DNA of 64,000 bases from an uncultured virus (IMG/VR IMGVR_UViG_3300026549_002477) (lineage: Duplodnaviria; Heunggongvirae; Uroviricota; Caudoviricetes), in IMG/VR virus record IMGVR_UViG_3300026549_002477. One strand, given 5' to 3'. Below, piece by piece: positions 17,306 to 41,033 of the stretch. Both the position numbers and the translations under genes were made by a program. Under the pieces are notes generated by a model. That model did not search any database. It saw only the letters and a list, made by a program, of their open reading frames with translations, and had not been told where the DNA came from. Numbering within the stretch: position 1 is the first letter of the stretch; every line of letters begins with the position of its first letter.

Positions 17306-17478
17306 ATTCGACTTAAAATATAACTCTTAATAAATAATAAATAAATTTTTAAATCAATTGTTTTTAAGAATAAAATTATGAGCATGTAAAATAATAAATT
17401 TAAGTAAACATTATGATTGCTAGAAAAACAGAAAGGAGTAAAGTTAGTACTTTGTGAGTATTAACTGAAACAAAGAGC

Positions 17479-18371: not shown

Positions 18372-19289
18372 ATGAGTTTATTTAAGAAAACTGTAAATAA
18401 TGAAATCAAAAAGATGGAACGCGGTGAGTCCATCATAAGCAGAAAAGATGATGATGCTGCTCGTGCTGCTGATGTTATAAAGCAATTATCTGGTGCTGAT
18501 AAGCAGATCAATAGGAAGTTAATTGATAACTTTATAGTTTTTACAAATGCAGCAGGTGGCACTGGAACAACTACTCTTATTACAAATGTTGCCTATGTAA
18601 TGGCAACACAAGGGTTTAAAGTATTATTAATTGATCTTAACATAATGTTTCCTGCTATTCATGCTTATTTTGGGATTGAGCAGAGTATAGATAAAAATAA
18701 ACCGGATCTAGTATCTTATTTACTTGGAAAATCTAAATTAAATGAGTCAATAGACACTACTCATGAAGTACATCTGTTGTATGCTAATAATCGTAATATA
18801 ATGGATGAAATAAACTGTAATGAAAATATTGCACTTGATAACTTTAATCAGTTAATTACTGGAGTTAGAAAGTACTATGATGTTGTTCTTGTTGACTGTC
18901 CAATGAGAATAGATTGCAGATTACAGAATAATACATTCTATAATGCAGATGCTGTGTACCTGGTTTGGGATGAGGGTGTTAATTGTATACTCAATACTGA
19001 AAAAATTAGAAGAAACATGGCAATTACAGGCATCGGCTTATTTACTAAAATGCAGGTAATTCTTAATAAGAGAACTGGCATATTCTATTCAAAATTTGCT
19101 CTTGAAAAATTAAATCTTAACCTTACAGAAATAGTTCCATACGAACAGGATGTTGTGTATGACTCACTTAGGGGTGCTATTTTCTGCAAAAATGGTGAAA
19201 GCAATTCTCCAACATCGAAGTTGTTTGTTGAGAGAATATACAGTTTGACTGATAAAATACTTAAGACTGGCGGATACATCGAGGAGTAA
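18372..19289 (+). CDS. MinD/ParA-family (CpaE/TadZ-like) ATPase
   Basis: Deviant Walker A AAGGTGTTT, KVLLIDLN, YDVVLVDCP and ILNK. Confidence 0.8.
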   Translation: MSLFKKTVNNEIKKMERGESIISRKDDDAARAADVIKQLSGADKQINRKLIDNFIVFTNAAGGTGTTTLITNVAYVMATQGFKVLLIDLNIMFPAIHAYFGIEQSIDKNKPDLVSYLLGKSKLNESIDTTHEVHLLYANNRNIMDEINCNENIALDNFNQLITGVRKYYDVVLVDCPMRIDCRLQNNTFYNADAVYLVWDEGVNCILNTEKIRRNMAITGIGLFTKMQVILNKRTGIFYSKFALEKLNLNLTEIVPYEQDVVYDSLRGAIFCKNGESNSPTSKLFVERIYSLTDKILKTGGYIEE

Positions 19290-19297
19290 TTGTTATA

Positions 19298-21082
19298 ATG
19301 GCTGTTAGAGATTTAACAGGACAAAAATTCTACGAATGGACAGTTTTAAAAGAGCTGGGTAGCGGAAAAGTTCATGTTAGATGCTCTTGTGGCATAGAAA
19401 AAGACATTTATAAAAAAGCTTTACTTGAAGGTAGATCAAAGTCTTGTGGACATGATAAACATAAGAACTTAGTTGGACAACACTTTGGTGAGTGGACAGT
19501 GCTTGAAGATTTAGGTAATGATACTCTGAAATGTCAATGTTCTTGTGGCAAAATAAAGGATGTAAACAGAAGGTCTATTATATATGGTAAATCAAAATCT
19601 TGTGGTTGCCATGGAAAATATAGAAAAGCTGAAGCTAAGAAAATGGCTTACAAAAGTTATAAAGAGAGAGCCATAACTGAGAGTAAAACTTATAAAGCTA
19701 TAGGTAAGACATATGGATACCTGACAGTCATAGACAGAGTTGATAAAGACAGAGTAAAGTGTAGATGTATCTGTGGAAATATTAAAATTGAGTATTTAAT
19801 GCATCTTGAAGCTGGAAATATTAAGTCATGTGGATGCATGCGTAATGAATTAAGAAGCCAATCTATTGAGAATAGAAAGTTAAGCCATATAGGTGAGAAA
19901 TATGGGTATTGGACAATAGTTGGCTTGGACTCTAAAAACAGAGAAGGCTATTATCATTGTAAATGCCTTTGTGGAAACGAAAACGATGTAGCTTTTAATT
20001 ATTTACGTAACGGAATATCAAAATCATGTGGATGTAAAGTAGCTGAAAATAGAAATAAAGCTATGATGCAATTATATGGTGAGATAGCTTCAAATAGAAT
20101 AGATAATCCACGAACAGAATGGCAAATAAACACATTAAATGATAAGAATAAGTTTATAGAATACATTAAATCATTGGGGTATAAACCTACTGGAATTGAA
20201 GAATATATACAAAAAGATTCAAATAAATCATCTTATGAATTAGAATTGTACAATTACATTAAGAGTGTATTACCTAATGAAGAAGTAGAACAAAATGTAA
20301 GAAATGTAATAGACGGTTCAGAGTTAGATATATACATTCAGGATAAAAAGTTAGCAATAGAGTTTGATGGATCTTGGTGGCACAGTGAAAATTTTTTAAA
20401 ACCTGAATATCATTTGGAAAAAACTCTAAAATGCCGAAATGCTGGAATTAGATTGCTCCATATATTCGAGTATGAATGGAATGACACAGTAAAACATGAC
20501 ATATTGATTAATGTTATAAACACGGCTCTAGGTATTAATCATGTAATATATGGAAGAGAAACACAGATAGCTTTTGTTACAAATAACGATGCAGTTGATT
20601 TTTTAAACACTAATCATTTACAGGGGGCTGTAAAGTCTCCATATAAACTTGGATTATATAAAGGTAATGAATTAGTAGCTTTAATGACTGTAAACAAACC
20701 AAGATTTGATAAAGAGTATGATTGTGAAATTACTAGATACTGTGTTAAAGGAAATTATACAGTTGTTGGTGGGTTTAATAAGCTATTTAAGTATTTTGTA
20801 GATAATAATGAAGTACAAACGGTGCTAAGTTATGCAGACATAGCAAAATTTAGCGGAAATATGTATAATGGAGCTGGTTTTACATCTACTGGGTTAACTA
20901 AACCTGGGTATTACTGGGTTAAAGGCAATACATATTTGAATAGATATAAGACACAAAAATCAGAGCTTGTAAAAAATGGTTATGGTACAGAAGATATGAC
21001 TGAAATACAGATTATGAAAAGCTTAGGATTTTTTAGAGTTTATGATTGTGGCAATGAGAAATATGTTTGGAATAGAAAATAA
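19298..21082 (+). CDS. Free-standing homing-endonuclease-like protein (Hef-like): 4 Cys-rich repeats, Vsr/DUF559-like nuclease and Mom-like GNAT domain
   Basis: 4 x G..F/Y..(W/L)TV...CxCG...G..KSCG; ELDIY..KKLAIEFDGSWWH; HLQG...EITRY...SYAD...G.MY..AGF. Confidence 0.72.
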   Translation: MAVRDLTGQKFYEWTVLKELGSGKVHVRCSCGIEKDIYKKALLEGRSKSCGHDKHKNLVGQHFGEWTVLEDLGNDTLKCQCSCGKIKDVNRRSIIYGKSKSCGCHGKYRKAEAKKMAYKSYKERAITESKTYKAIGKTYGYLTVIDRVDKDRVKCRCICGNIKIEYLMHLEAGNIKSCGCMRNELRSQSIENRKLSHIGEKYGYWTIVGLDSKNREGYYHCKCLCGNENDVAFNYLRNGISKSCGCKVAENRNKAMMQLYGEIASNRIDNPRTEWQINTLNDKNKFIEYIKSLGYKPTGIEEYIQKDSNKSSYELELYNYIKSVLPNEEVEQNVRNVIDGSELDIYIQDKKLAIEFDGSWWHSENFLKPEYHLEKTLKCRNAGIRLLHIFEYEWNDTVKHDILINVINTALGINHVIYGRETQIAFVTNNDAVDFLNTNHLQGAVKSPYKLGLYKGNELVALMTVNKPRFDKEYDCEITRYCVKGNYTVVGGFNKLFKYFVDNNEVQTVLSYADIAKFSGNMYNGAGFTSTGLTKPGYYWVKGNTYLNRYKTQKSELVKNGYGTEDMTEIQIMKSLGFFRVYDCGNEKYVWNRK

Positions 21083-21189: not shown

Positions 21190-22701
21190 ATGACTAACAA
21201 AGAACTTTTGGAATACCAGACACAACGAGGTGCAAAAATCGGAGATGCTGGTGATTCTAATACAAGAACTTTACAGGCAGTTTTAAATGACTGTCGTAAG
21301 AGAATTGAGGAAGAAAGTCCTAAGTATCGTGATCTTGATATAAATGCTAAGAAAGCTATGATTCATCAGATAATAGTTGACTTTGTTATGGATACAAAGC
21401 CAATGGTTGAAGGATACATAGATGGTGAAAATAGATCAGATACTAGAAAACTTGTAGATGCTTTGGTTGCAGATATTACAGATTATGGTATTCTTACACA
21501 AGCAATGCAAGATGATGATGTATTTGAAATCCGTTCAAACGGACGTGAAATAAAGGCAGAAGTTAAGGGTCATGTAGATGATCTTAAGGATAAAGAGGGC
21601 AAAATACTTAGGTTTAGTACTCCTGAACAGCAGGAAATTATTCTTAAGAAGTTGCTCGGTGATGTAAGATTAACAAAGGCAGCAGCTCTTGTTAATGGTA
21701 TTACTATTGAAGGTTACCGTATTGCAGCTGTTCACAGTTCAGCAATGTCAGATGATCCTAATGATCCAACGGCACCGAAGTTTAATTCTTTTGTTTTAAG
21801 AAAGTTCCATAAAACTAAGTTAAAACTTGGTGATATCGTTAAATTTCATACAATGAGCGATAACATGGCACGTACATTAGCCTTGTCAGTTGCAGGTGGT
21901 CTAACCTTCTTTACAGTAGGGCCGACTGCATCAGGAAAAACTACTACAAACAATGCTATACTTCAGTCAGTTCCACCTTATTTAAGAACTGTTATTATTC
22001 AGAACCCTTCAGAAATTGATCTTCGTATGAAGACTGCTGATGGACGTATGTATAATGATGTTCTGCATTTGGAAGCTAGAGATGTTATAAATCCTACTCC
22101 AAATGATCCTACAATGACAAACTTGATTAACCATACTTTGAGACTTTCACCTTCACTTGTGTGCTTAGGTGAAATTCGTGATAATAAAGAGTTTAAGGAA
22201 GCAACTCGTATTCTTCAAGCTGGACACCCTATCAATACTACATTCCACGCTGAGTCTAGTGAGGGTGCTATTCGAAGATACTTAACTGCTTATCTTGCTG
22301 AATCTGGTAATGAACCATCTGATCTAGCATTAAGAGAAATTACAGAACTTGTTAATCTCATTATTGTACAGAGAATAATGGCTGATGGAACTCGTAAAGT
22401 TCTTCAGATTTCTGAAGTATTGGGTGTTGACCCTGAAGATAGAAATAGACCATTGCTTAATGATTTGTATAGATTTGTTGTTGATGAGGAGCCTGAGACA
22501 GATGATGAAGGTAACGTTATAAAAATTCATGGTCATCACCATAGGGTAGGTACATTATCACAGAAGACTATTGATAGATTCAAGCTTCAGGGTATTTCTT
22601 CTAAGAGATATGATTTTCTTACTAAAGAAGTAAATGAGTTTGAAGTTGAAACTTATACTGGTACTAATATTGATCATTATGGAATTAATTCCAGCAATTA
22701 A
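21190..22701 (+). CDS. tadA: CpaF/TadA pilus assembly ATPase
   Basis: YGIL...DDDVFEI, LRKF, GPTASGKTT, LRLSP...GEIRD, GH...TFHA and RKVLQISEV. Confidence 0.88.
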   Translation: MTNKELLEYQTQRGAKIGDAGDSNTRTLQAVLNDCRKRIEEESPKYRDLDINAKKAMIHQIIVDFVMDTKPMVEGYIDGENRSDTRKLVDALVADITDYGILTQAMQDDDVFEIRSNGREIKAEVKGHVDDLKDKEGKILRFSTPEQQEIILKKLLGDVRLTKAAALVNGITIEGYRIAAVHSSAMSDDPNDPTAPKFNSFVLRKFHKTKLKLGDIVKFHTMSDNMARTLALSVAGGLTFFTVGPTASGKTTTNNAILQSVPPYLRTVIIQNPSEIDLRMKTADGRMYNDVLHLEARDVINPTPNDPTMTNLINHTLRLSPSLVCLGEIRDNKEFKEATRILQAGHPINTTFHAESSEGAIRRYLTAYLAESGNEPSDLALREITELVNLIIVQRIMADGTRKVLQISEVLGVDPEDRNRPLLNDLYRFVVDEEPETDDEGNVIKIHGHHHRVGTLSQKTIDRFKLQGISSKRYDFLTKEVNEFEVETYTGTNIDHYGINSSN

Positions 22702-22735: not shown

Positions 22736-23731
22736 ATGCAGTCTATATTTTCAAGATTGGGCACTGTAAGTGGTGCAGTACCCGTAGCAATATTCTTCAT
22801 AATTTTAACTGGTATGTTGATCATAGTGAGGATGACCAATTTACCAATAGTAGAATTAGTCAGAAGATTTTTTAAGATTATAGCAAATTGGTTTAGTGGG
22901 GCTGTCAATAAGCAAGAGACAAACTACCACAGAGATTTAGCTATAGGTAAACTAGATAAGACAAGGAAGACAGTTAAACTGTATGGTTTCTTAAATGATC
23001 TTATAATAGATCTTGGTTGGGCACATACAGGAATAACACCATTTGAACTGTTATGGATCATAATATTCATCTGCTTCGTTGCTTGTACAATTGCTTGCAA
23101 GCTGCTATTTAATTCTTTTGCAATGGTATTAATTATCGGGCCTATTGTAACAGTTGGTACATTCTGTGTGTTATATACAAAAGCAAATATAGCACATGAT
23201 GAACGTATTGAAGCAGTTATTGAAGCAGAAAATATTGTTTGTAACAATATTAAGGAAGGTGTTCTTGTAGCTGTAAGAGAGTCATTAAATAGTATGCCTA
23301 GATCTGTTAGACCAGCTTTTAAAGATTTCGTTGATAATGTTGAAAATGAAAACTATCATATCAAAACAGCTTTGCTTGAGTTAAATGGAAAACTTGGTGG
23401 AGTTGCAGATGATTTCATTAAAAAGTGTATAGTATTTGAGACAGAAGAGGAACATGGTATTGCTGGTATGTTCCAGGATATAGTTCAGATAAACAACCAG
23501 AACCTTCAGTTACGTATTATTGAAAAAAGACATTTTGAAACAGTTAAGCAGCAATTTATAATTGGTGCTAGCATGATTTTCATATTCCTTGCAGGTATTC
23601 TTGTTATATATCCAGATATAAGAAAATGGTATTTAACAACTGCCCTTGGCAGAATTTTACTCAGTATTGATTTGCTTATAATCATTGGTGAGTTTGTTTA
23701 TATCACATATTTGAGAGCTAAGGAACTCTAA
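22736..23731 (+). CDS. tadB: TadB-like pilus platform membrane protein
   Basis: TM - soluble - TM pair topology directly after tadA. Confidence 0.62.
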   Translation: MQSIFSRLGTVSGAVPVAIFFIILTGMLIIVRMTNLPIVELVRRFFKIIANWFSGAVNKQETNYHRDLAIGKLDKTRKTVKLYGFLNDLIIDLGWAHTGITPFELLWIIIFICFVACTIACKLLFNSFAMVLIIGPIVTVGTFCVLYTKANIAHDERIEAVIEAENIVCNNIKEGVLVAVRESLNSMPRSVRPAFKDFVDNVENENYHIKTALLELNGKLGGVADDFIKKCIVFETEEEHGIAGMFQDIVQINNQNLQLRIIEKRHFETVKQQFIIGASMIFIFLAGILVIYPDIRKWYLTTALGRILLSIDLLIIIGEFVYITYLRAKEL

Positions 23732-23828
23732 TAGAATGCCATATTCAAAGAATATAACTGGACAAAGATTTGGAAAGGAACTCTAATAGAATGCCATATT
23801 CAAAGAACATAACTGGACAAAGATTTGG
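23720..23828 (+). repeat. Tandem duplication of 54 bp (period 55, one mismatch) spanning the tadB stop and the start of endonuclease gene 2
   Basis: AAGGAACTCTAATAGAATGCCATATTCAAAGAA(T/C)ATAACTGGACAAAGATTTGG at 23720 and 23775. Confidence 0.95.
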
Positions 23829-25587
23829 GCACTGGACAGTATTGAATGATCCAGGAGGTCAAAAAGCATTATGCAGATGTGATTGTGGGAATGAAAGATG
23901 GGTTTGGAAGTCTCATTTACGCCGTGGGGATTCAACTTCTTGTGGGTGTGATAAGTACAAAAAGATGCATCCAGTAGTTGATGATTTAACAGGACAGAGA
24001 TTTGGTAGGCTAGTAGTTTTAGAAGAACTTGGCGGCGGCAAAATTAAATGTAAATGTGATTGTGGGACAGTAAGGGTATTTGATAAAGTATCTGTTAAAG
24101 GTGGTATAACAAGATCTTGTGGATGTTTGAAGCAAGAAAAAATAAGAGAAGTAAAGAATGATTTAACTGGACAAAGATTTAATGAATGGACAGTCATAGA
24201 AGAATTAGGTGGAAACAAAGTTCTAGCTAGATGTTCTTGTGGAAAAGTAGCTGAACTCTGGAAGTCTCATTTAATTAAAGGCGATACTAAGTCTTGTGGA
24301 CATGAAAGAAACTTAGTAGGAAAACAATTCGGATCTTGGACAGTATTAGAGGAACTCGGTGGTGGACTGGTAAAGTGCAAATGTGAGTGTGGAAACATAA
24401 GGAATGTTTATAAGGAAACTTTACTTGATGGATCATCAAAATCTTGTGGTTGTAAACAAATTGAAAATAGACAAGATACTCTGATGAAAATATATGGTGA
24501 TCCAAGTTCAAGAAGAACAAACAATCCAAGAAAAGATTACCAAATTAAAGCTACAAAATCAGCTGAAGAATTTAAGAAATACATAACAAGTTATGATCAT
24601 AAGCCAACATTAAATGAATTATCTAAAGATTTGGATATTACAGTTGCATTTGTTGGAAGATTAATACATAAAAATCAGCTTGAAGAATTTGTAGATATAT
24701 TTCCAGATAAATCAGTTGGCGAAAAAGAGCTATTTGAATTTTTGAGTAGCATATATAGTGGGAGGATAGTTCAAAATACACGGCAGGTTATACCACCATA
24801 TGAATTGGATGCATATTTACCAGAAAAACACATAGCATTTGAATTTAATGGAAATTATTGGCACTCTGAAGCTATACATGATACTTTTTATCATCAAGAA
24901 AAAACTTTAGCGGCTATTAAGAATAATATTCATTTAATACATATATTTGAGTATGAGTGGGAAGATCAAGAAACTAAAGATAAATTAAAAAATTACATTA
25001 AAGATATAATAGGTAACAATAATACTGTGTTATATGCTAGAAATTGTAGTATTAAAGAATTAGATAGCAATACAGCATCTGATTTTTGTAATAAGTATCA
25101 TCTTCAAGGTTATGCTAATGCTTCTATTAATATAGGATTATATTATGCAAATGAATTAGTTGGGATCATGACTTTTGGTACTCCTAGATTTGGAAGTGAG
25201 TATCAATATGAATTGATAAGGTTATGCTGGAAATCTGGATATAGCATAGTTGGTGGAGCAGAAAAACTATTCAAATATTTTATTAGTAAATACAGTCCAG
25301 ATAATATAGTTAGCTACTGTGATGTAAGCAAGTTTACAGGTAGGGTATATACAAAACTAGGGTTTAGGTTAGCTGATAATAAACTGACACATCCAAATTA
25401 TGTGTGGATAAGAGGAAAAGTAGCATTGAGTAGATATCAGACTCAAAAGAGTAAGTTAATCAAGTATAAATTGGATGCATTTGGCGATACAGAAGATGAC
25501 ATTATGCATAACATTGGGTTTTATAAAGTCTATAATTGTGGAAATTTAAAATTTGTTTACAACAAACAAGAAGGTAATAAACTATGA
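23791..25587 (+). CDS. Second Hef-like protein: 4 Cys-rich repeats, HTH-like segment, Vsr/DUF559-like nuclease and Mom-like GNAT domain
   Basis: Paralog of 19298..21082; ELDAYLPEKHIAFEFNGNYWH; HLQG, ELIRLC and SYCD; stop overlaps the next ATG (ATGA). Confidence 0.72.
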   Translation: MPYSKNITGQRFGHWTVLNDPGGQKALCRCDCGNERWVWKSHLRRGDSTSCGCDKYKKMHPVVDDLTGQRFGRLVVLEELGGGKIKCKCDCGTVRVFDKVSVKGGITRSCGCLKQEKIREVKNDLTGQRFNEWTVIEELGGNKVLARCSCGKVAELWKSHLIKGDTKSCGHERNLVGKQFGSWTVLEELGGGLVKCKCECGNIRNVYKETLLDGSSKSCGCKQIENRQDTLMKIYGDPSSRRTNNPRKDYQIKATKSAEEFKKYITSYDHKPTLNELSKDLDITVAFVGRLIHKNQLEEFVDIFPDKSVGEKELFEFLSSIYSGRIVQNTRQVIPPYELDAYLPEKHIAFEFNGNYWHSEAIHDTFYHQEKTLAAIKNNIHLIHIFEYEWEDQETKDKLKNYIKDIIGNNNTVLYARNCSIKELDSNTASDFCNKYHLQGYANASINIGLYYANELVGIMTFGTPRFGSEYQYELIRLCWKSGYSIVGGAEKLFKYFISKYSPDNIVSYCDVSKFTGRVYTKLGFRLADNKLTHPNYVWIRGKVALSRYQTQKSKLIKYKLDAFGDTEDDIMHNIGFYKVYNCGNLKFVYNKQEGNKL

Positions 25588-26648
25588 AAGTTGAATATGG
25601 TACCGGTGGTGGTGAAATATTACAATACATAGGAAAAAGTCCAGACAGTGAAAATTGGTATCAAACATTAAATAAAGATGCCATGAGACAACTAGCTATG
25701 ATACCTTATGTTAAGGGTATCATTATATGTCTGGCTATTGTACTTGCTACTATTGTGATATTTAAGATCTTCTCTATAAGAAGTATAACACATGGAAAAG
25801 CAATAAATAATGAGTTAAAATATTTAAGTGCAGTAAAGAAAAAAGAAGATCAGGTATTGCAAGCTAATAAATTTATGAAATCAACTACTAGCATAGTTGA
25901 GCATACAAATTTGAGATTGGCTAAATCTTATGTAGATTACTGGACTTATAATCTTGAGAGAGCAAATATAAGAATACCTGGTGGATCAAGAGTAATGACT
26001 GCCCAGGAATTTAATGCACTTATAAGATTTTTTGAAGCAGTCATAGCAATAGCTAGCCTACTTATATTAATATTCTTAAATGCACCTGCTGGATTCTTAC
26101 TTTTAATTATGGACATCCTGTTTTCAAATACACTTCCAATGATGTTTATAAGAGCAAGTGTTAAGGATAAGGATTCAGAGATAGTTAGAAACTTTGCAGA
26201 TTTTTACTTGATGCTGCATTACGTTCTTTTAACAAGCGCAAGTACTCCATTAAGTGGTGTCATTAAATCTTATGATAAAACTACTGAGAGTACTGAAATG
26301 CATAGATTTGTAGACTGTTGTATTCATTATATAGATACATATGGTGAATATGATGCCACTAAATACATTTCAAGACAGTATAGAGAAGTTCCACAAGTAA
26401 CAAAACTAATGAGACTTATAAGACAGGCTAATGAAGGCGGCGATATTAGAGAAGAGCTTATAGGATTCAGGAATCAATTACTTGAAGCTAGAGCAGCAGA
26501 AATGGAAAAGAGAATGAACAAGATGGTTGCTAAAGCACAGCGTTCTTTCTCATTTACACTAACTCCAGTTCTTTTCCAGGCTATCATAAGTGCCATGATG
26601 GTTTATATTGGAGATCTTGGAATGGTTAAGGGACTATTAAATACTTAA
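25584..26648 (+). CDS. tadC: TadC-like pilus platform membrane protein
   Basis: LERANI..., TM pair, DFYLML, LIRQANEGGDIREEL and a C-terminal TM; position in the operon. Confidence 0.62.
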   Translation: MKVEYGTGGGEILQYIGKSPDSENWYQTLNKDAMRQLAMIPYVKGIIICLAIVLATIVIFKIFSIRSITHGKAINNELKYLSAVKKKEDQVLQANKFMKSTTSIVEHTNLRLAKSYVDYWTYNLERANIRIPGGSRVMTAQEFNALIRFFEAVIAIASLLILIFLNAPAGFLLLIMDILFSNTLPMMFIRASVKDKDSEIVRNFADFYLMLHYVLLTSASTPLSGVIKSYDKTTESTEMHRFVDCCIHYIDTYGEYDATKYISRQYREVPQVTKLMRLIRQANEGGDIREELIGFRNQLLEARAAEMEKRMNKMVAKAQRSFSFTLTPVLFQAIISAMMVYIGDLGMVKGLLNT

Positions 26649-26847
26649 AGAGCAGTAAAAATTATGTCATAGACATATAAAATGACATTAGTATTATTAG
26701 ATTTTAAATTTTAAAAAGTTTAGTAACAGATGTTTATGTAATCATAAATGTGGTAAGCTGATAAGCATAATTTAGAGTATAAAGTTAACGAAAAAACATA
26801 TTAAATAAAAAGCAAAGGATAATTAATTTTTGGAGGTAATTTAAATT

Positions 26848-27141
26848 ATGTCTGGAACAGTGAAGAACATATTCAAGGTGCTCATCATAGCTATCGTCTG
26901 CCTTGTCGTTGGTGCTTTCCTTATCAACGTCTTGGCACCCAACGCTACTAACCAGGTGACTAACGCTATTGAGCAGCAGGTCTGGAAAGCAACTGGTATC
27001 TCTCTTGATCTCAATGGTGATGGTTACACAGGTCAGAATGGTGGTAAGGCTACAGCTGGTGCAAACAGAAGTGATAAGAGTAATACTATTGCTGGTAAAG
27101 GTGGTGGCAATACAGTTACCGGTTTCAGCCGTGACAAATAA
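26848..27141 (+). CDS. Putative major pilin (Flp-like position, non-canonical N-terminus)
   Basis: 97 aa with one N-terminal hydrophobic helix; strong GGAGG RBS; high-expression codon bias; own upstream intergenic region and downstream hairpin. Confidence 0.6.
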   Translation: MSGTVKNIFKVLIIAIVCLVVGAFLINVLAPNATNQVTNAIEQQVWKATGISLDLNGDGYTGQNGGKATAGANRSDKSNTIAGKGGGNTVTGFSRDK

Positions 27142-27186
27142 TAATAGTTCCAATTAAAAACAATAACATAGTAGCAAACAACTAGA

Positions 27187-27238
27187 AAGGATGCCTAGGA
27201 CATGAAAGGTTAGTTAAGTGTCCTAGGCATCTTCTTTT
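27187..27238 (+). terminator. Strong stem-loop (terminator or mRNA stabiliser) after the putative major pilin
   Basis: GATGCCTAGGACA...TGTCCTAGGCATC followed by TTCTTTT. Confidence 0.8.
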
Positions 27239-27267
27239 AGGATCAAAGCAACAAGAGGGAAAAACGT

Positions 27268-27858
27268 ATGTCCGATGAAGTAAAAAATATATTTAAAATT
27301 TTAATAAAAGTGCCGTTAATAATTCTTGTGGCATACCTTGTGCTTAATGCATTTGCATTTGCCTTTGTTTATTTCAAGCTTCTTGGTGCTTCTTATGCAG
27401 TAATGCAGGTTGCTATTGAGAATAATTATTTACCTGACCGCGAATATCAAACTCTTGAAAAATACGTTGAAGATTTTGATAATAATACTGAATTTTTGAG
27501 CGAAGCACATGTTATAACTAGTTCTGATTCAGATGCTACTCATGCAACGCCTGGAAATAATACATCTAGGAAACAGTATGGAGCAACTGTTGTAGTTGGA
27601 GTATCTGCTAAGTATAAGATGATTTGGCCATTAACTTATACACAGACAATACAAGAAGATAGTACTGTAAGTAAAAATCAGCGTACTAATGAAAACATAG
27701 AAGAGGGTTCTGTACCTGGTATAAATTCCGGAAGATCACTTGAGTTTAAGAAGGATGATGATCTTGAAAATGATAGAAAGAAAGCAGCTACAAATCAGAT
27801 GTTCAGGTTTGTCTATACAGTTCCGGGATTAAAGTATTATCCTGATATGAGTTATTAA
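27268..27858 (+). CDS. Putative minor pilin (TadE-like position)
   Basis: N-terminus MSDEVKNIFKIL plus hydrophobic helix, resembling 26848. Confidence 0.5.
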   Translation: MSDEVKNIFKILIKVPLIILVAYLVLNAFAFAFVYFKLLGASYAVMQVAIENNYLPDREYQTLEKYVEDFDNNTEFLSEAHVITSSDSDATHATPGNNTSRKQYGATVVVGVSAKYKMIWPLTYTQTIQEDSTVSKNQRTNENIEEGSVPGINSGRSLEFKKDDDLENDRKKAATNQMFRFVYTVPGLKYYPDMSY

Positions 27859-27882
27859 TTTAAATAAGAGAGGTGATAATAC

Positions 27883-28980
27883 ATGGCGTCATCAGTAAAA
27901 TCAATATTTAAAACTCTCTTAGCAGCAATATTAATACCAATAGCTATATCTTGCATAGTTGAGATGTTTAATGTTAATGTTAACTCAGTTAGATTGAAAC
28001 AGCTGATGAAAACATCTGCATATCATGCATGCGATATATTTGCACAGGAATCTTATAGAAATAATGGCAGTTCGGCAACAGATGTTGTTTATGAAGAACG
28101 AGATGCTAACGGTGGTTTAACTGGAAGTAAAACTGTAGTAATTTCAAGGGATATATTTAATGTTGATTATGATAACATTTATGGTTCGAGTCCTTCATAT
28201 TTAAAATTCCTTGGTGGAGAAGCTCCATATTATTATTCAACAGACGTAATAACTAGTGAGATGGCTAATATAGCTATTGCTGGTACTGAAGAATATGATG
28301 AAAAATATACTCCAACAAACGTTGGTGTACCATATTTTGATGAAGATACAACAAATAATATGTTCAGATGGGCATTAGCTAAGGTTTTATCAAACTGTGA
28401 TGATGATCTTATACAAAAAGATGAATCTGGTGAGTATTATGTAAACTACAATGGGTTTGCAGTTTATTTTATGAGAGCTAAAATTAATCAGTATGATTAT
28501 TATAAGAAAGACTTGAATAATTCTGATGATCGTAAATGGCTCGCAGATACAGTACATTATTTTGATGCTAATTCAGAAGATGTTGGTGTTCTTAATGGTG
28601 TAGATAGTGATGAAAACAATTGGGTTATAGTAGTTGGTGTGGGTTATGAAGTACCAGTTAGATATATTGGAATAACTCCTATTAAGAGAGTATTTGAATT
28701 AGCTTGGAATAGAGAAGTTGCTGGATATAATAAAGATGGTGATACAGCACACAGTGTGACATATGATAATAACACTGGCTGGACAACATCTGGACGTCAA
28801 TATGCTAATCCAAACAGTCCTGATGGTAATTATTATTTTGAAGCAAAAGAAGATAAGATCAATGGTGGTGGTTATAGTGGAACAGGTACAAAAGGTATGA
28901 GTTCCGAAGCAGAGTTTAATGAAATACATCAAAATACATTAGCAACAATTGGTACATTATTCTATACACTTGAAAGATGA
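27883..28980 (+). CDS. Putative minor pilin/tip protein (TadG-like position)
   Basis: N-terminus MASSVKSIFKTL plus hydrophobic helix, then a large soluble domain. Confidence 0.5.
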   Translation: MASSVKSIFKTLLAAILIPIAISCIVEMFNVNVNSVRLKQLMKTSAYHACDIFAQESYRNNGSSATDVVYEERDANGGLTGSKTVVISRDIFNVDYDNIYGSSPSYLKFLGGEAPYYYSTDVITSEMANIAIAGTEEYDEKYTPTNVGVPYFDEDTTNNMFRWALAKVLSNCDDDLIQKDESGEYYVNYNGFAVYFMRAKINQYDYYKKDLNNSDDRKWLADTVHYFDANSEDVGVLNGVDSDENNWVIVVGVGYEVPVRYIGITPIKRVFELAWNREVAGYNKDGDTAHSVTYDNNTGWTTSGRQYANPNSPDGNYYFEAKEDKINGGGYSGTGTKGMSSEAEFNEIHQNTLATIGTLFYTLER

Positions 28981-29012: not shown

Positions 29013-30035
29013 ATGTTTGGTAGGAGTAGTAAAAAAGCAGCTGTTGAGCAACCTGAAGTTGCTAATCAAGTAAATAAAAGTAGTGATACAGCTACAGAAA
29101 TTCAGTCAACTAGTCAAGAAGTTGCTGAACAACAAATGCCAGAGCAACAAAACTTTGAAAGCCAAGAGGATCAAACCAAAGATACACAGTTACCTGAGCA
29201 TGTAGATGAGGATCAAACCAAAGATACACAGTTACCTGAGCAGGTAGATGAGGATCAAACCAAAGATACACAGTTACCTGAGCATGTAGATGAGGATCAA
29301 ACCAAAGATACACAGTTACCTGAGCAGGTAGATGAGGATCAAACCAAAGATACACAGTTACCTGAGCAGGTAGGTGAGGCTAAAGGCAATAAGGGTTTTG
29401 TTACAAGAAAATCATCAGAACCAACAGACAGAGTTTTGTATATTGTAGCTGATAAGATTTTACCTGGTGAGCTTGATTACTTCAGGTGTCATAATGCAAA
29501 GGTATCAAGAATCTTCCATAATATAGATGATGCAAGTTCAGTGATGATTATGCAGGTTAGTAAATGTAAACTTGTGATAATTGAATCTGGTACAGGTAGG
29601 TTTACTAATATGACTGCAAGAAATGCAATAGTCGACTTGCTTGGTTTAAGTAGTGATGTAGATGTTGACATTGATGTGTTTTATACTGACTCTGCATTGA
29701 AAAGTCAGATAGAAGAGAATGATAAGGTAAACAATAATGATATTAATTGGTATGACTTTAAATCAACTCCAGACGTGTTAGCTAAGATTTTATCAGAGGC
29801 ACATCTTCATAATGACAATTTTATTTATGATTCACTTAAGCCTTATGAGGATCCAACAGATAATAAGAATCCAATAGATTTCATGGGTTTTGATGAAAAA
29901 GATGCTAAACCAGTCCGTGGAAGTAAATATACAGTTGATATACAAGATGTGCTGATTAACATTGATAATAAAACCAGTCCAGCAGAAGAGTTTCACCCAA
30001 AGATCAAACCAATGAGAGAAACAGAGACAGCTTAA
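29013..30035 (+). CDS. Hypothetical protein with an acidic repeat N-terminus and an alpha/beta (possibly receiver-like) domain
   Basis: GGAGG RBS; 5 x 14-aa repeat; VLYIVAD...LVIIE...DVFY strand pattern. Confidence 0.6.
   Translation: MFGRSSKKAAVEQPEVANQVNKSSDTATEIQSTSQEVAEQQMPEQQNFESQEDQTKDTQLPEHVDEDQTKDTQLPEQVDEDQTKDTQLPEHVDEDQTKDTQLPEQVDEDQTKDTQLPEQVGEAKGNKGFVTRKSSEPTDRVLYIVADKILPGELDYFRCHNAKVSRIFHNIDDASSVMIMQVSKCKLVIIESGTGRFTNMTARNAIVDLLGLSSDVDVDIDVFYTDSALKSQIEENDKVNNNDINWYDFKSTPDVLAKILSEAHLHNDNFIYDSLKPYEDPTDNKNPIDFMGFDEKDAKPVRGSKYTVDIQDVLINIDNKTSPAEEFHPKIKPMRETETA
29166..29375 (+). repeat. 5 x 42-bp in-frame tandem repeat (EDQTKDTQLPE[H/Q]VD)
   Basis: GAGGATCAAACCAAAGATACACAGTTACCTGAGCA(T/G)GTAGAT at 29166, 29208, 29250, 29292 and 29334. 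Confidence 0.95.
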
Positions 30036-30096: not shown

Positions 30097-30304
30097 GGTG
30101 TCATAAATAAAGTTAGCCTTGACGTATTTATATATTGAAGTATAAATAATTTTGAGAGTAATTTTAGGATTAGAAATAAGGTTTAGCAGTATTATAATAT
30201 AAGTATAACTTTTTAATTTAGTAAAGATAAAGTCGTAATTAAAATAGGCTTAATATATGACTTTATTGTAATTAGTAGTGATTAAAATTTTTGGAGGTAT
30301 AAGG

Positions 30305-31447
30305 ATGAGTTTTGTAGCTATTGATATTGGTGCGAGCAACACAAGATTTGTAGCGGACAATGGGCAGATTAATACACTTCCCAATGATATGTTGTTCCTC
30401 AATGATGGTGAGGTATCTGACATTGTACCTGATAAGGTACAGATTGAAGATAGCCTTGAGTTTACCATTAAGAAGACCAGTGGAAATCCTTGTGAGTATT
30501 TTCCTGTGACAGCTCTTGCAGGTATTATGGCAGAGAGACATGATGGTACACCTGTTACACCGTCTGTTGATGATCATAAGTACAATCAGAGAGTAAACTA
30601 TACAAGTCTTATTCTTGCATGCGCTGTGAGTCAGATTAAGAGCCAGACACCTGAACAGACAGATGTGTTTATTGCAGTACCGCCTATTGAGATTAGAGAT
30701 GCAAGGAAGGTATTTGGTGAGAAGCTTCCTGGAAAGTATGAAGTAAACTTTCCGAAGTTTGGTGCTGGTGGAACAACAGTGACAGTTGACATTCAGAATG
30801 TTTATCTTGAAGAAGAGAGTAAGATGGCTGTATTCAGTTTCTTCTTTGGAATGAACGGTATGCCAATTAAGGAACATATGAAGTATATGCAGGGTCGCGT
30901 ACTGTCAATTGATATTGGAGCATCTACTATTGATCTTGCAATTATTGATAAGGGTACATACCAGGATAAGTCTGGAAGATCATTTAAGATTGGCGGGAAT
31001 GTTGTGAGAGACAGAGTTATGAATGACATTAGTGCAGAGTATTCTACTGATCTGAATGATAGAGATGCAGATAGGACGATTACTGAAGGACGTTTGCAGT
31101 CTGGTAATTCTTATATCAATGTTGGAAGCATTGTAGATGCTGCAAAGATGGAACTGGCTGATATCATTGTTGACCGTATTCCATCTTACTTTAAGAACAT
31201 TGGATCATCTCTGAAGATGATTAATGCAATTGTAGTAAGTGGTGGTGGATCACTTCAGAGCCAGTACATTGAGAATAATGAAGTTGTCAAGACAAGTGAG
31301 TCACTTGCATATTTCATTACTCAGAAGCTTCTTGAAACCTCACCAAATACTGAAGTAGTTGACTATGGTGAAGATGCAAGATTTGCAAACATTAAGGGAC
31401 TGTATATTCTGGCAAGAGTGAATAGTGCAAGAAACAGTGCAAAGTAA
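30305..31447 (+). CDS. ParM/StbA-like actin-fold ATPase
   Basis: Phosphate 1 IDIGASNT, EE connect motif, phosphate 2 IDIGASTID, adenosine motif VSGGGS and FANIKG; GGAGG RBS. Confidence 0.85.
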   Translation: MSFVAIDIGASNTRFVADNGQINTLPNDMLFLNDGEVSDIVPDKVQIEDSLEFTIKKTSGNPCEYFPVTALAGIMAERHDGTPVTPSVDDHKYNQRVNYTSLILACAVSQIKSQTPEQTDVFIAVPPIEIRDARKVFGEKLPGKYEVNFPKFGAGGTTVTVDIQNVYLEEESKMAVFSFFFGMNGMPIKEHMKYMQGRVLSIDIGASTIDLAIIDKGTYQDKSGRSFKIGGNVVRDRVMNDISAEYSTDLNDRDADRTITEGRLQSGNSYINVGSIVDAAKMELADIIVDRIPSYFKNIGSSLKMINAIVVSGGGSLQSQYIENNEVVKTSESLAYFITQKLLETSPNTEVVDYGEDARFANIKGLYILARVNSARNSAK

Positions 31448-31465: not shown

Positions 31466-34400
31466 ATGCTTAACAACGATAATGGAAAAATTAAAATTGC
31501 TGTTAAGATAGGTAATACAGCTATTATAAGGTTTAGCAACTGTATTACCTATCGAGCATTGACAATAGAAGATTTAAATAACATAGTAAAATCAAATGGA
31601 TGCCATATCGTTGTTTTTGAAGATATTGCAGAAGATGAACAAGATGATGCTAGGACATTCATTACTGAATTTTCCAAAGATCCAGATAATTATATGATAT
31701 TCCTTGATACTGGGGATAACATTTATACATCTGGTATGGCTGACGAATTTGAAGAAGCAGTATATACTACAGATACTGACATATATAATCAGATTGAGAA
31801 GCTTTATAATGTCTGTGTTAGTCCTTATATGAAAGATAGACATAAGTTCTCATCTGATGCAAATCCTGATACCATTGGTGAATTGATGGGTTTAGGAAAT
31901 GATACAGATGCATCTAACAATGAAACAGATGCATCTAACAATGATACAGATGCATCTAACAATGAATTTTCCAATACAGATGATATTGCAGTATCTGACA
32001 GTCATGATGGGGATTTAGGGTTTACTGTTCCAACAGGGTATAACAATTCTGAGAATGATAAGTTAATTGAACAACTAAAGGCACAAATTGATGAGCTTAA
32101 GAGTGGAAAAGCTGAAGCAGAGGATAGAGTTAATAAGCTAGCTAATGAAAAGGCTGAAGCAGAGGATAGAGTTAATCAATTAGTAAATGAGAAAGCTGAA
32201 GTTGAAAATAAAGTCAGTCAGTTAACAAGTGACCTTGATGCTGAAAGACAGAGACAGGCTGATATAGAGAAACAGCATAGGGAAGAAGAGGAACTTAGAC
32301 TTACAGCTGAGTCACTCGGAATTGCAGTACCCAATAAGCAGAATCATGAAGTTATTGACCAAACAGAATCAAGTAGCAGTGGTTTAGATAGTGATGAAGC
32401 TCTTGAAGAAATTACAAAGCTTCGTGATGAATTATCAAATACAAAGCATGATTATTCTGAAGCAGTTAAGAATCTTGAGTCAGCTACTGATTTAATAACT
32501 AAACTTCAGGATGAGGCAGATGCAATTAGGGCTGAACATCAAGCTATTTTAAATCATTATAATGAACTCGTAAGTTTGGATCAAGACGTTATGGAGGATC
32601 CAATCACTTTAGAGCAATATAATGGTATACTCAAAGATAGTGAGAATACCAAGAAATTACTTGATGATGCTAATGGCAAGATTGAAAAGCTTACTAAAGA
32701 TTTAGCTGATACAAAGCAATCAAGTTCTGAAACTATTAGTGATATTCAAAGCAAACTTGATAAAGCTAATGAAGAACTTAACGAACTTCATGAGCAAATA
32801 GATTCTGGAGAAATTCATAGAGAAGTTGTAGATGAATATGAGAATAAGCTTGCTGACATAAATTCAAGAAATGATGAACTTACTAGACAAGTAGATAACT
32901 TAACAAGTAAAGCTAACGAACTGTCAGAACAGCTTGACAAACTTAAGTCAGAGAAGCAGTACAGAATAGTATTAACATCTTACCTTGAAGATTTGTTTGG
33001 GAATATTAAGAATTATAATGAGCAGAATGAGATAGAGAAATCTGGACTTCTTAGACAAATTACTGATCTTAAGGATAAGTCTGAAGATGACCTGCAGGAA
33101 ACTAAGAGACAGTATGAAGATCAGATTAAACAGATCAAAGATAAAGCTAATAATGATTTAAGGCAGATTAAACTTGAAGATGAAGAAAAGAGTAGGAAAG
33201 AAAAGCAAGAAGCTATTGATAACGGTCAGAGAGCTGTAGATTCTATAAATGAAGAACTTAATAAAACTAGAGAAGACCTTGAAAATGAGAAGAAACAGAA
33301 TGCTAGTTTAAGTGATAGATTAACATTATCAGATAACTTTTCTAACTCTTTACAGAAGCAGTTGAATGAAGCTAGAGATCAGATTGCTAAACTTTCAAGC
33401 GGAAATCTTGAGAGCAGAACACTGCTCGAGAAAAATAATAACCTTGAAAACACTTTGCATCATATTAAATATGAACTTGACACAAGTAAACAGAGTGAAT
33501 TAGCTTTAACAAATGAGAATAATTCATTGCAAGCTACTAATGAGCAGCTAAAAGAAAGTGTTAAGAACTTAAAGAGTAATATTAATGCACTTAAAGCACA
33601 GTTAAATAGCCTGCAGCTTAGCAGACAAAACATGCAGAGTGTATCAAACACAGGGTTTGCAAATGGGTTTGATTCAGCACCAGTAAACCAGGAAGTTAAA
33701 ATTAGTTACAATGGTGGTGCAAAGATAATTCCAGTGTTTGGTTCCGGATCATATGGTGTAACTACAATGGCATTAAGTATTGCAACTAAACTTAGTGCTG
33801 GTAGTAAAGTACTTGTTATAGATATGGATTTGGCATATCCAAAGATTGATATGTATTTGAAACAGAATCCAGCTTGTAATAATATATCTGATAACTATGG
33901 TACTGGAATTAAGAAAACATCATTGAGTTTGTGCTACATGAATGGTATAAGGTTCTTAGAAAGTAATTATATGAACCTTATACATGTAATTACTTACGGT
34001 AGATCAAGATTCGGTTACATGAGTGGTGTATATTATAATCTTGATGATGCAACTTTGTTGGGGTTTGATTATACTAGGTTCTTTGATTTTCTTAGCCAGA
34101 GTTATGATTATATTATTGTTGACTTGGGAAAGTTTGGCGGTAACTTAGTAAATGATAAGATCATAACAGCAATAATTAAGATACCAGGTGTCCGTTCTGT
34201 AGCTGTTACAAACTCTCAGTATATGACAATTAGAAATTTTGTTATCAATTTAAAACAGTTAGAGATAAACACACAGAATTTGATTGTCGTAAGTAATTTT
34301 TATGATAAACAGAAGGTATCAGATAGAAGCAAAAAGAAAATTAGTACTGTTTTAAATGGAATAAATAATACAACTATTAGACTTGAACCTGGCATTGCTA

Positions 34401-34498
34401 TTGGTTGTGATGAAGATGATTTTAACAAAGTGAACTATAATAATGATAATTTAAACAAAGTAAATGTTGAGATTATCCTTGGGTTCGTAGCTCGGTGA
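31466..34498 (+). CDS. 1010-aa protein: N-terminal alpha/beta domain, ~500-aa coiled coil and C-terminal degenerate MinD/ParA-like ATPase
   Basis: Heptad-rich aa ~195-725; IIPVFGSGSYGVTT, KVLVIDMD and YDYIIVDLG. Confidence 0.72.
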   Translation: MLNNDNGKIKIAVKIGNTAIIRFSNCITYRALTIEDLNNIVKSNGCHIVVFEDIAEDEQDDARTFITEFSKDPDNYMIFLDTGDNIYTSGMADEFEEAVYTTDTDIYNQIEKLYNVCVSPYMKDRHKFSSDANPDTIGELMGLGNDTDASNNETDASNNDTDASNNEFSNTDDIAVSDSHDGDLGFTVPTGYNNSENDKLIEQLKAQIDELKSGKAEAEDRVNKLANEKAEAEDRVNQLVNEKAEVENKVSQLTSDLDAERQRQADIEKQHREEEELRLTAESLGIAVPNKQNHEVIDQTESSSSGLDSDEALEEITKLRDELSNTKHDYSEAVKNLESATDLITKLQDEADAIRAEHQAILNHYNELVSLDQDVMEDPITLEQYNGILKDSENTKKLLDDANGKIEKLTKDLADTKQSSSETISDIQSKLDKANEELNELHEQIDSGEIHREVVDEYENKLADINSRNDELTRQVDNLTSKANELSEQLDKLKSEKQYRIVLTSYLEDLFGNIKNYNEQNEIEKSGLLRQITDLKDKSEDDLQETKRQYEDQIKQIKDKANNDLRQIKLEDEEKSRKEKQEAIDNGQRAVDSINEELNKTREDLENEKKQNASLSDRLTLSDNFSNSLQKQLNEARDQIAKLSSGNLESRTLLEKNNNLENTLHHIKYELDTSKQSELALTNENNSLQATNEQLKESVKNLKSNINALKAQLNSLQLSRQNMQSVSNTGFANGFDSAPVNQEVKISYNGGAKIIPVFGSGSYGVTTMALSIATKLSAGSKVLVIDMDLAYPKIDMYLKQNPACNNISDNYGTGIKKTSLSLCYMNGIRFLESNYMNLIHVITYGRSRFGYMSGVYYNLDDATLLGFDYTRFFDFLSQSYDYIIVDLGKFGGNLVNDKIITAIIKIPGVRSVAVTNSQYMTIRNFVINLKQLEINTQNLIVVSNFYDKQKVSDRSKKKISTVLNGINNTTIRLEPGIAIGCDEDDFNKVNYNNDNLNKVNVEIILGFVAR
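31898..31966 (+). repeat. 3 x 21-bp in-frame tandem repeat (N[D/E]TDASN)
   Basis: AATGA(T/A)ACAGATGCATCTAAC x3. Confidence 0.9.
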
Positions 34499-40384: not shown

Positions 40385-41020
40385 ATGCAAGATAAAGAGA
40401 TACTTGAGATGTTAAAAGATGTGCACGGTGATGGAGTTATGTGCACCAATGGTTTATTTTCAATTTATGATAACAAGCATCATGAAATCTATATTGATCC
40501 AATAACTGGCGAGATTGACAAGCGAGCTTCTTATAGGACACTCGTAGTTCTTGATGAAACTATAGTGGCTCAAGTTCTGGATCGTAAGGATGCAAGGTTT
40601 GTCATATTAAAGAAAGATGATCTACATACATTATATAGTACAAAAGGGAAAATATATTATATAGACAATGATCTTGTATGTGATTACATAAATAATTCTT
40701 GTAAGCTTATATCACATACTGGTAAGATACTTAATGTATATAATGATACACAGAGTATAAAGAAGATTTGGAACAGTTATTATATAACTCAATCCTTTAA
40801 GATGTATAGTGATATAGCTTTACATTATAACAGATGCAATGATTCAATAAGTAATATATCAATGAATGAAAGATATGACATTGATATTATTAATAAAACT
40901 AAAGGAACTGTACTTGTAACTCCTATGGGCGGGATTAGTTACAAGTATGATTTTAAGAATAAGAAGGTTTATAACACATTTACAGGTAAAGAAGTGGATA
41001 AGCAATTATTTGTGTCATAG
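40385..41020 (+). CDS. Hypothetical protein (beta-rich)
   Basis: Coupled ORF. Confidence 0.65.
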   Translation: MQDKEILEMLKDVHGDGVMCTNGLFSIYDNKHHEIYIDPITGEIDKRASYRTLVVLDETIVAQVLDRKDARFVILKKDDLHTLYSTKGKIYYIDNDLVCDYINNSCKLISHTGKILNVYNDTQSIKKIWNSYYITQSFKMYSDIALHYNRCNDSISNISMNERYDIDIINKTKGTVLVTPMGGISYKYDFKNKKVYNTFTGKEVDKQLFVS

Positions 41021-41033
41021 CAGAGGATTTAAA

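Follow-up and report, generated by a model that had tools for sequence, protein, structure and literature searches.

Positions 26848 to 28980 of the window, by which we mean the whole 64,000-nucleotide stretch analysed here (IMG/VR record IMGVR_UViG_3300026549_002477), carry three consecutive plus-strand open reading frames (ORFs) whose products begin with the same short, lysine-bearing signature. The first gene, pil1 (26848..27141), encodes 97 amino acids (aa) starting with MSGTVKNIFKVL and continuing into a hydrophobic helix, and is a candidate major pilus subunit. The second, pil2 (27268..27858), encodes a pilin-like protein of 196 aa that starts MSDEVKNIFKIL, with the N-terminal signature MSDEVKNIFKILIKVP and a transmembrane helix, and the third, pil3 (27883..28980), a pilin-like protein of 365 aa with the N-terminus MASSVKSIFKTL, a transmembrane helix and the invariant residues E27 and N30. 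The long hydrophobic run that follows each start begins past residue 10 or 16. The original prediction, which saw in these genes a pilin class using the signature instead of a class III signal peptide, had the coordinates, N-termini and lengths of the three proteins right. A Shine-Dalgarno-like GGAGG or AGAGG lies 6-10 nucleotides 5' of each of the three ORFs. Longer N-termini are impossible, since an in-frame stop is found one codon 5' of the ATG in both pil1 and pil3, and the 9 in-frame codons 5' of the pil2 start include no ATG, GTG or TTG.

In the six-frame translation of the window, the motif VK[NS]IFK.L occurs three times, always at the N-terminus of pil1, pil2 or pil3. The number expected from composition is 1.8e-3, and 200 shuffled windows taken together gave one match. 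When the motif was relaxed and combined with a hydrophobicity filter, the window returned pil1-3, an internal in-frame start in the TadC-like gene and two short minus-strand ORFs; no further gene carrying the motif was found by relaxed scans of the window and of G001, a complete relative of 264.6 kb (direct terminal repeats, rated 100% complete).

The signature is also spread over a wide family, which supports the original prediction. A profile search with pil2 against 1.84 billion proteins recovered 187 representatives at E <= 1e-3, nearly all of them aligned from residue 1, and 61 pil2 homologues were present in a 90%-clustered database. A word search returned 3 homologues of pil3 and 4 of pil1, and a contig of 400,213 bp contains the exact pil1 sequence. 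With the pil2 alignment as query, 2 loci were located in the viral catalogue, 30 in metagenomes and 2 in genomes. Among viral contigs, a single ATPase sequence used as probe found no related locus, and a TadC alignment found the same two contigs only. The relatives of pil1 start mostly with M-x-V-K-K-I-F-x-x-L, those of pil2 with M-[ST]-[DE]-x-V-K-F-I-F-K-T-L-x-K-V-P and those of pil3 with M-x-V-K-T-I-F-K-V-L-I-G-T. The prefix before V-K can consist of 1 residue (MVK), 2 (MSVK, MTVK), 4 (in the window and in the related locus L032) or 5 (MGKGAVK, in pil1 of locus L001), and starts of the types MxVK and MxxxVK are found as well. The identical register from Met1 that had been claimed therefore holds for the window and L032, with 4 residues in both, and is a feature of the subclade of the window; elsewhere the prefix is 1 to 5 residues long. 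Within the pil2 family, Pro16 is kept in 159 of 201 sequences, and positions 6, 10 and 14 are basic (Lys or Arg) in 140, 148 and 156 of these 159, respectively, so that the lysines of pil2 would lie on one helical face. As a separate observation, the contig of Clostridia bacterium MS499-75 (L049) carries a divergent, higher-GC copy of the module, with two unrelated ORFs between pil2 and pil3. Its N-termini (pil1 MVKPSVIIAIL, pil2 ..AAAVIKGFGKVIW, pil3 MAKNVILFF) retain the Lys and the hydrophobic pattern alone.

Profile-profile alignments connect the three families through their N-termini. With hhalign, the pair pil1-pil2 gave a probability of 83.5% (E 8.4e-6), pil3-pil2 91.2% (E 1e-6) and pil3-pil1 93.0% (E 3.5e-7), and all three pairs aligned in register from residue 1 to residues 29-35. 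The N-termini of pil1-3 are therefore paralogous, like the pilin sets of known systems. The three proteins had been described as otherwise unrelated, and past approximately residue 30 they are; the first 30 residues or so are homologous.

In the Tad/Flp system, pilins follow the rule G|xxxxEY, with cleavage after Gly. To our knowledge, cleavage of the leader by an A24 peptidase is regarded as universal and obligatory in pili, type II secretion systems (T2SS), Com systems, Tad systems and archaella. The absence of G|xxxxE(Y/F) stated in the original prediction was confirmed: G-x4-E-[YF] is absent from pil1, pil2 and pil3, and G-x4-E followed by a hydrophobic residue was found within the first 45 aa in none of 29 pil1 and none of 30 pil2 sequences. 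The same pattern appears in 5 of 27 pil3 sequences, at the distal end of the hydrophobic stretch, which is not a class III position. Across these 29, 30 and 27 sequences there is no conserved Gly or Ala before the hydrophobic stretch and no conserved Glu(+5); counted from residue 2, position +5 is Lys in all three window proteins. According to the review PMC10191384, a class III signal peptide is a hydrophilic leader ending in Gly or Ala, and leaders end invariably in one of these two residues. Having neither such a leader nor Glu5, pil1-3 would therefore not be canonical A24 substrates.

The genes for such a peptidase were also looked for. Pfam PF01478 (A24 peptidase) matched none of the 56 ORFs of the window to which Pfam was applied. 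In G001, the complete relative, it gave nothing at E <= 1, and the control search detected it in 12 of 14 genomes. A crude regular-expression search for GxGD-type motifs found none in the polytopic proteins of the window; in G001 the matches fall in a single protein of 1702 aa and look incidental. A four-helix membrane protein of 144 aa (14755-15189) was assigned to no family, and phmmer found no homologue of it in the related loci, which extend about 10 kb 5' of pil2. The element thus appears to bring no peptidase of its own, unlike at least one canonical relative: one of the DUF4320-type loci discussed below has an adjacent A24 peptidase gene (E 1.1e-11).

That the three proteins are pilin-like, as had been proposed, agrees with their position behind a CpaF/TadA-TadB-TadC-like set, with their homologous N-terminal helix and with the modelled helix-plus-sheet of pil2. 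The AlphaFold2 (AF2) model of pil2, from 47 sequences, has a predicted local distance difference test score (pLDDT) of 75 and consists of a helix at residues 3-52, a second helix and a sheet of three strands. The first helix is continuous (pLDDT 83-92) and runs into the conserved domain. Pil2 also presents E-N-N-Y after the transmembrane helix and PGLKYYPD at the C-terminus. The alpha-1N of class III pilins, in which 20-25 mainly hydrophobic residues run into an alpha-1 of about 50 residues, is seen in the models of pil2 and pil3, the latter with a confident N-terminal helix at residues 2-57 (pLDDT 74-79). In the VIA comparison of the pil2 model, 15 of the 50 matches listed were type IV pilins or pseudopilins (Z 4.7-6.4), among them full-length PilE (1ay2, Z 5.6, 108 residues aligned) and the PAO1 pilus (8tum, Z 5.2), and both PilE and the PAO1 pilus subunit aligned with the pil2 model from residue 1. 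For pil3 there is a lead to DUF5411 (score 0.88). We infer that pil1-3 are filament subunits.

Several features suggest that pil1 would be the major subunit, namely its small size, its distinct codon usage and a terminator-like hairpin behind it. The GC content at third codon positions (GC3) is 0.418 in pil1 and 0.16-0.31 in nine neighbouring genes. In the gap between pil1 and pil2, a hairpin with a U-rich tail that resembles a terminator or attenuator (27182..27240, plus strand) has a minimum free energy of -33.9 kcal/mol (z -5.95), and none of 200 shuffles was as stable; a simple terminator scan did not pick it up. Upstream of pil1 there is a weak promoter-like site (26670..26697, plus strand; TAGACA-16-TATTAT, 10/12), and such sites are as many in the region as shuffled sequence predicts. 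RNA-library contigs start near it, at 26718 and 26731, in two runs, and those covering pil1 end at 27175-27199 in four runs. In these four runs (at most 3 samples, 3 studies), the word depth of the pil1 contigs was 15.5-42.1, and that of the contigs over the TadC-like gene, pil2 and pil3 about 2-7.5; this hints only weakly at a major subunit, since genes cannot be ranked by contig depth. In an alignment of 23 pil1 sequences, P31, N32 and E42 are invariant. The family also has a nearly invariant D-x-N-x-D-G loop, reminiscent of calcium-binding sites, and ends in a conserved V-x-G-F.

The genes around pil1-3 form a module whose order is constant among the related loci, as judged in those whose contig extends far enough: RecJ-like, CpaB-like, TadZ-like, ATPase, TadB-like, TadC-like, pil1, pil2, pil3, the gene for a 340-aa protein (p340), ParM-like and coiled-coil. 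The GC content of the window is about 30-35%, its long ORFs are all on the plus strand, the genes of the module and the two inserts described below among them, and GC skew is positive in every 2-kb bin over the 64 kb. The RecJ-like DHH/DHHA1 protein (15641..17305; Pfam DHH E 3.4e-7; phrog_2484, RecJ-like single-stranded DNA exonuclease, E 3.6e-35) is encoded directly 5' of the module in relatives and is syntenic in the loci extending there. It is followed by a CpaB/RcpC-like bitopic protein (17479..18339), with TIGR03177 CpaB at E 0.029, below cut-off, and an SAF domain at E 0.039; against the annotated CpaB of plasmid pMU3262 it gave a full-length BLASTP match of E 2e-11. Next comes a TadZ/CpaE-like ATPase of the ParA/MinD type (18372..19289), which matches Pfam AAA_31 (E 5.6e-16), MipZ and CbiA and, in NCBIfam, MinD (2.2e-14) and CpaE_hom_Actino (1.5e-6), these ParA/MinD-type matches all lying under the family cut-offs. 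The CpaF/TadA-type secretion ATPase (21190..22701) matches Pfam T2SSE (E 2.7e-18) and the TadA family TIGR03819 (E 7.2e-18, under cut-off). Its top sequences in the PDB are CpaF (8rjf, E 3.3e-20) and next FlaI, and it is 26% identical (E 3e-32) to the TadA of a DUF4320-type locus of Lachnospiraceae.

Two polytopic proteins would form the platform. The TadB-like protein (22736..23731) has approximately 5 hydrophobic spans and a conserved position; it had no match in the Pfam scan, and BLASTP against the pMU3262 protein in the TadB position gave E 3e-5 over a stretch of 58 aa. For the TadC-like protein (25584..26648), hhalign of its clade alignment against the TadC of Bacillota plasmid and integrative and conjugative element (ICE) loci gave a probability of 94.7% (E 6e-8, 196 columns). 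The operon is interrupted by two homing-endonuclease-like inserts, one between the TadZ-like and TadA-like genes (19298..21082; phrog_3339 homing endonuclease E 2.3e-99) and the other between the TadB-like and TadC-like genes (23770..25587; phrog_3339 E 1.5e-94). They are paralogues of about 600 aa, each with repeated Cys-rich GQ(R/K)FG-x-W-T-V modules and an endonuclease-like C-terminal part. Neither is found at these junctions in L001; L005, L016 and L031 may carry inserts of this kind, to judge by gaps of 1.7-2.1 kb at the same junctions. In L001, a TnpB-like transposase ORF of the IS200/IS605 type (16179-17366; phrog_506 transposase E 1e-98, with the ORF read as L040:489-1676) lies 3' of the module.

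Downstream of pil3, and always 3' of it, is the gene for the conserved acidic protein p340 (29013..30035), with a homologue in the same position in the loci extending there and no family in the Pfam and PHROG scans. The window copy of p340 contains 5 tandem acidic repeats of 13 residues, of the DEDQTKDTQLPE type, and short pieces of RNA-library contigs accumulate over it. A ParM/Alp7A-like actin-fold protein (30278..31447) follows, with matches to Pfam MreB-like_C (E 1.7e-8), Alp7A_like_C (0.0045) and the partition protein phrog_691 (E 1.3e-28), and is syntenic with the module. So is a coiled-coil protein of 1010 aa (31466..34498) with SMC/Rad50-type matches and, in its C-terminal part, a P-loop region of MinD/TadZ-like type (AAA_KGGVGR, E 0.037, residues 764-801). 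The actin-fold and coiled-coil genes accompany the Tad-like module wherever a locus extends far enough to include them, and this synteny raises the question of a functional coupling between partition and the filament machine. At greater distance, a class B sortase gene (13470-14255; TIGR03064 E 2.2e-35, under cut-off) lies 13 kb 5' of the pilin-like genes, and 12622-13416 encodes a protein with a microbial-type poly(ADP-ribose) glycohydrolase domain (PF10021 E 1.4e-26). Among the replication and nucleotide genes, at 44015-45619, 40947-41528 and 62869-63999, are those for a dCMP deaminase, a clamp-loader subunit and a fragment of a family A polymerase that bears a Big_4 Ig-like domain; this polymerase is apparently split or insert-bearing, as in G001.

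The closest known counterpart of this organization is found in the Tad-like loci of Bacillota plasmids and conjugative elements that carry pseudopilins of the TadE-like family DUF4320. These loci share the order CpaB, ParA-like ATPase, TadA, TadB, TadC, small pilin and medium pilin. Such loci were present in 4 of 81 Lachnospiraceae genomes searched, with the same gene order as the window. By tblastn, the closest plasmid ATPases to that of the window, about 30% identical, belong to Thermoanaerobacterium plasmids. In pMU3262 of Thermoanaerobacterium saccharolyticum the order is CpaB, AAA ATPase, T2SS/type IV pilus (T4P) ATPase, two hypothetical membrane proteins, a 64-aa protein and a DUF4320 protein, the last with weak TadE and TadF matches too. 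The pMU3262 pilins have canonical leaders (..DERG|ALTLLEW and ..NQKG|DLTIELL), which the window pilins lack. In general, the pilins of the DUF4320 loci have basic leaders of 10-20 residues that end in an invariant Gly (7/7), with mostly Glu or Asp at +5. The T2SSF signal is faint alike in the clade of the window and in the Bacillota plasmid loci, and to the DUF4320 arrangement the window module adds the large pil3, the RecJ-like gene and the ParM-like and coiled-coil genes. Pil2 sits in the DUF4320 position. In the ESM Atlas it neighbours a DUF4320 cluster (score 0.93), a lead only, and neither DUF4320 nor DUF5411 was found in the two genomes bearing relatives. At the level of sequence, a homology between pil2 and DUF4320 is not demonstrable.

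Canonical Tad/Flp (type IVc) systems, such as those of Aggregatibacter and Caulobacter with Flp, TadE/TadF, TadV/CpaA and CpaF, share with the window the CpaF-type ATPase and its putative TadZ-like and CpaB-like partners, and likewise combine a very small major subunit with larger pseudopilins. In contrast, the window has neither G|xxxxEY nor TadV, in a monoderm context without secretin. Pil1-3 had no match at E <= 0.01 to PF04964 (Flp), PF07811 (TadE) or PF16964, and none of these three was among the 20 families listed for the 47 pil2 members at E <= 5. As for the archaeal type IV pilins and archaellins, the window ATPase scores best against the NCBIfam FlaI model (E 6.9e-27), far under cut-off. 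In archaea the leaders are short, with Gly, Ala or Ser as last residue and PibD, FlaK or EppA as the cleaving enzyme, and Glu5 is not obligatory; none of the three leader-end residues is conserved in the window families. Tip minor pilins of the GspK/PilK class are pilin-fold subunits without Glu5, according to PMC10191384, and the GspK-GspI-GspJ complex (3ci0, Z 4.9) is among the VIA matches listed for pil2. That class has a normal, cleaved leader and one Glu5-less subunit per system, whereas in the window all three subunits, the presumed major one included, lack both leader and Glu5. The TadC-like match to the TadC of Bacillota plasmids and ICEs, together with the same gene order, indicates that the module derives from that Tad-like lineage. 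To speak of a new branch of the type IV filament superfamily, as the original prediction did, was thus an overstatement, and a variant within the Tad lineage describes it better. Our searches of the published literature turned up neither this module nor leaderless Tad pilins.

The reading that we tentatively favour, with a probability of about 0.45, sees here a filament system derived from Tad, with major and minor subunits that have a leaderless, lysine-bearing N-terminus and are used without A24 cleavage. A number of points weigh against it. The four top VIA matches of the pil2 model are chains of the unrelated pita-bread fold (Arx1, methionine aminopeptidase, creatinase; Z 6.5-8.2), and since these outscore the pilins, the fold evidence for pil2 is suggestive and not decisive; the match to pilins is middling, with Z below 8, and Foldseek of the same model against PDB and BFVD gave no match at E <= 0.001. 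The AF2 model of pil3 is poor (mean pLDDT 53.7). Pil2 aligned with the 7-sequence DUF4320-locus alignment at an hhalign probability of 0.9%, and Pfam DUF4320 (PF14208) appeared in 2 of 47 pil2 members, the best at E 0.01, under cut-off. The T2SSF matches of the TadB-like and TadC-like proteins are faint at best, that of the TadC-like clade being found in 1 of 14 members at E 0.053, and the RNA evidence consists of contigs alone. The absence of a peptidase covers one complete relative and 64 kb of a contig of approximately 400 kb, and the host may supply the enzyme. Moreover, G003, a metagenome-assembled genome (MAG) with a relative, has two A24 genes above cut-off, although its completeness and binning are uncertain. 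The co-absence of A24 peptidases proposed as a check was observed in the complete G001, and not in this relative-bearing MAG. Finally, we know of no precedent among extruded type IV filaments for one or two Lys kept at the buried end of alpha-1.

Other explanations of the signature have to be considered. V-K-x-I-F-K-x-L could be a short non-canonical leader or recognition site, removed by a relaxed host A24 enzyme or by an unrecognised peptidase. A shared processing enzyme would be expected to impose such strong conservation on a short motif in three paralogous families, the variation of the prefix by 1-5 residues resembles that of prepilin leaders, and the leaders of the canonical neighbours, MxxKKxLxxxxG and MINYVKAKIKSF.., are loosely motif-like. 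A24 peptidases are, besides, common in Bacillota, with the two of G003 as an example. We nevertheless consider processing unlikely, as Gly or Ala is not conserved ahead of the hydrophobic stretch, against the leader rule given in PMC10191384, and no peptidase gene was found in the module, in the scanned window ORFs or in the complete 264.6-kb relative; G004, the other genome with a relative and of uncertain completeness, had no PF01478 match either. The signature would also make sense in membrane accessories of the PilN/PilO or TadG kind, not filament subunits, in which the cytoplasmic peptide would dock a partner and the outer domains would act at the envelope. Their architecture would fit, with a single transmembrane helix between the short conserved peptide at the N-terminus and a domain on the outside, and Lys 6, 10 and 14 of pil2, on one face before Pro16, are like a membrane-surface docking helix. 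Membrane-adjacent charges satisfy the positive-inside rule, with no need for their removal, and the pilin fold match of pil2 is just Z 4.7-6.4. Candidate docking partners are at hand in the TadZ-like and CpaF-like ATPases and in the actin-fold protein, syntenic in the loci extending that far, although the latter matches partition-type ParM/Alp7A families. On the other hand, pil1 is tiny (about 85-100 aa) and rich in Gly, Asn, Ser and Thr, and has its own codon bias and a terminator-like hairpin, all hallmarks of an abundant structural subunit. The small-medium-large order after TadC parallels Flp followed by a TadE-like (DUF4320) protein in the nearest plasmid locus, and no PilN or PilO chain is among the 50 VIA matches listed. 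For these reasons the accessory role seems to us possible, but somewhat unlikely.

It could also be asked if the N-termini are ordinary export signals, of the Sec or lipoprotein type, on secreted or lipid-anchored cargo unrelated to filament assembly. A basic n-region with a hydrophobic stretch is generic, many pil1 sequences have I-V-A-C within that stretch, and, as we mentioned before, a class B sortase is encoded 13 kb 5'. The Cys of pil1, however, is not conserved, being missing in L012, L020, L021, L032 and L049, and the hydrophobic run extends about 12 residues beyond it. There is no A-x-A type site, and the invariant P31-N32 follows the helix; AF2 predicts the single continuous helix of pil2 into the conserved domain. 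No LPXTG-type sorting signal is present at the C-terminus of pil1-3, and V-K-x-I-F is conserved across the paralogues more specifically than a generic signal peptide would require. On these grounds we discarded the lipoprotein, Sec and sortase-substrate readings, and ordinary export is highly improbable.

Returning to the leaderless Tad-derived system, pil1-3 would be subunits of a type IVc-like filament machine, with pil1 as its small and strongly expressed major subunit and pil2 and pil3 as larger minor ones. Each subunit would be bitopic, with the N-terminus inside and the C-terminus outside. The common start of about 30 residues would comprise Met, 0-4 variable residues, V-K-x-I-F-(K)-x-L and approximately 20 hydrophobic residues, these last forming the first half of an alpha-1 helix of about 50 residues, and would stand in for the class III signal peptide. 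The subunits would enter the CpaF/TadB/TadC-like machine uncleaved, losing at most the Met or its formyl group. The conserved Lys-bearing juxtamembrane motif may serve as a handle for a cytoplasmic or platform partner, for subunit-subunit contact, or for both. A further step, which we regard as speculative and rather unlikely, would be to see here a peptidase-independent type IV offshoot with pilins that are "born mature", in which the initiator Met takes the place of the leader and Lys that of Glu5; a Lys or Arg is found five residues after Met1 in pil1-3 of the window and in 140 of the 159 full-register sequences of the pil2 family.

The carriers of the module appear to be extrachromosomal elements of low GC content and giant size (about 115 to 500 kb) in Bacillota of the gut and of anaerobic digesters. 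The source contigs of the related loci reach 465-496 kb (L016, L018 and L027), and the records of L016, L018, L023, L026 and L027 measure 221-496 kb. The sources named for the related loci are human-gut and bioreactor metagenomes and a MAG of water-deer caecum, and bovine-gut RNA libraries carry the window stretch at at least 99% identity. IMG/VR catalogues G001 as viral. Its ORFs of 200 aa or more, 154 in total, all share the same strand, and it encodes a polymerase, a clamp loader, helicases, a topoisomerase II, a ligase and ParB-like and FtsK-like proteins. No terminase, portal or capsid PHROG was found among its 129 ORFs of at least 230 aa or among the scanned ORFs of the window, and a search with PF03237 gave no match. 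The viral label of this clade is doubtful, since no terminase, portal or capsid family was detected in G001, although a plasmid nature is not thereby proven. According to a 2026 preprint (PMC12934698), TerL-less entries of huge-phage collections can be Bacillota megaplasmids. The Hodor megaplasmids described there differ from the element of the window (GC 45-47%, Rep_3), and the words pilus, pili, pilin and CpaF do not occur in the main text of that preprint.

In the more speculative, peptidase-independent reading, the filament module would be self-contained, carried together with an actin-type partition system and a RecJ-like nuclease by giant plasmid-like elements without TerL in gut Bacillota, and it could serve in cell contact or help its own element to transfer DNA. 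Besides, the module is a marker for giant extrachromosomal elements, of up to about 500 kb, that form a clade so far poorly described, from gut and digester metagenomes, which are catalogued as viruses and of which at least one complete member has no recognisable virion genes. A natural leaderless Tad-derived system, without Gly/Ala(-1) and with Lys in place of Glu5, would directly test the rule of universal cleavage. It would bear on the contribution of Glu5 and of a free N-terminus to the docking of subunits, and on what the platform proteins actually recognise. As the family is well sampled, with its 187 pil2 representatives, it offers a good comparative base for mutational and structural work.

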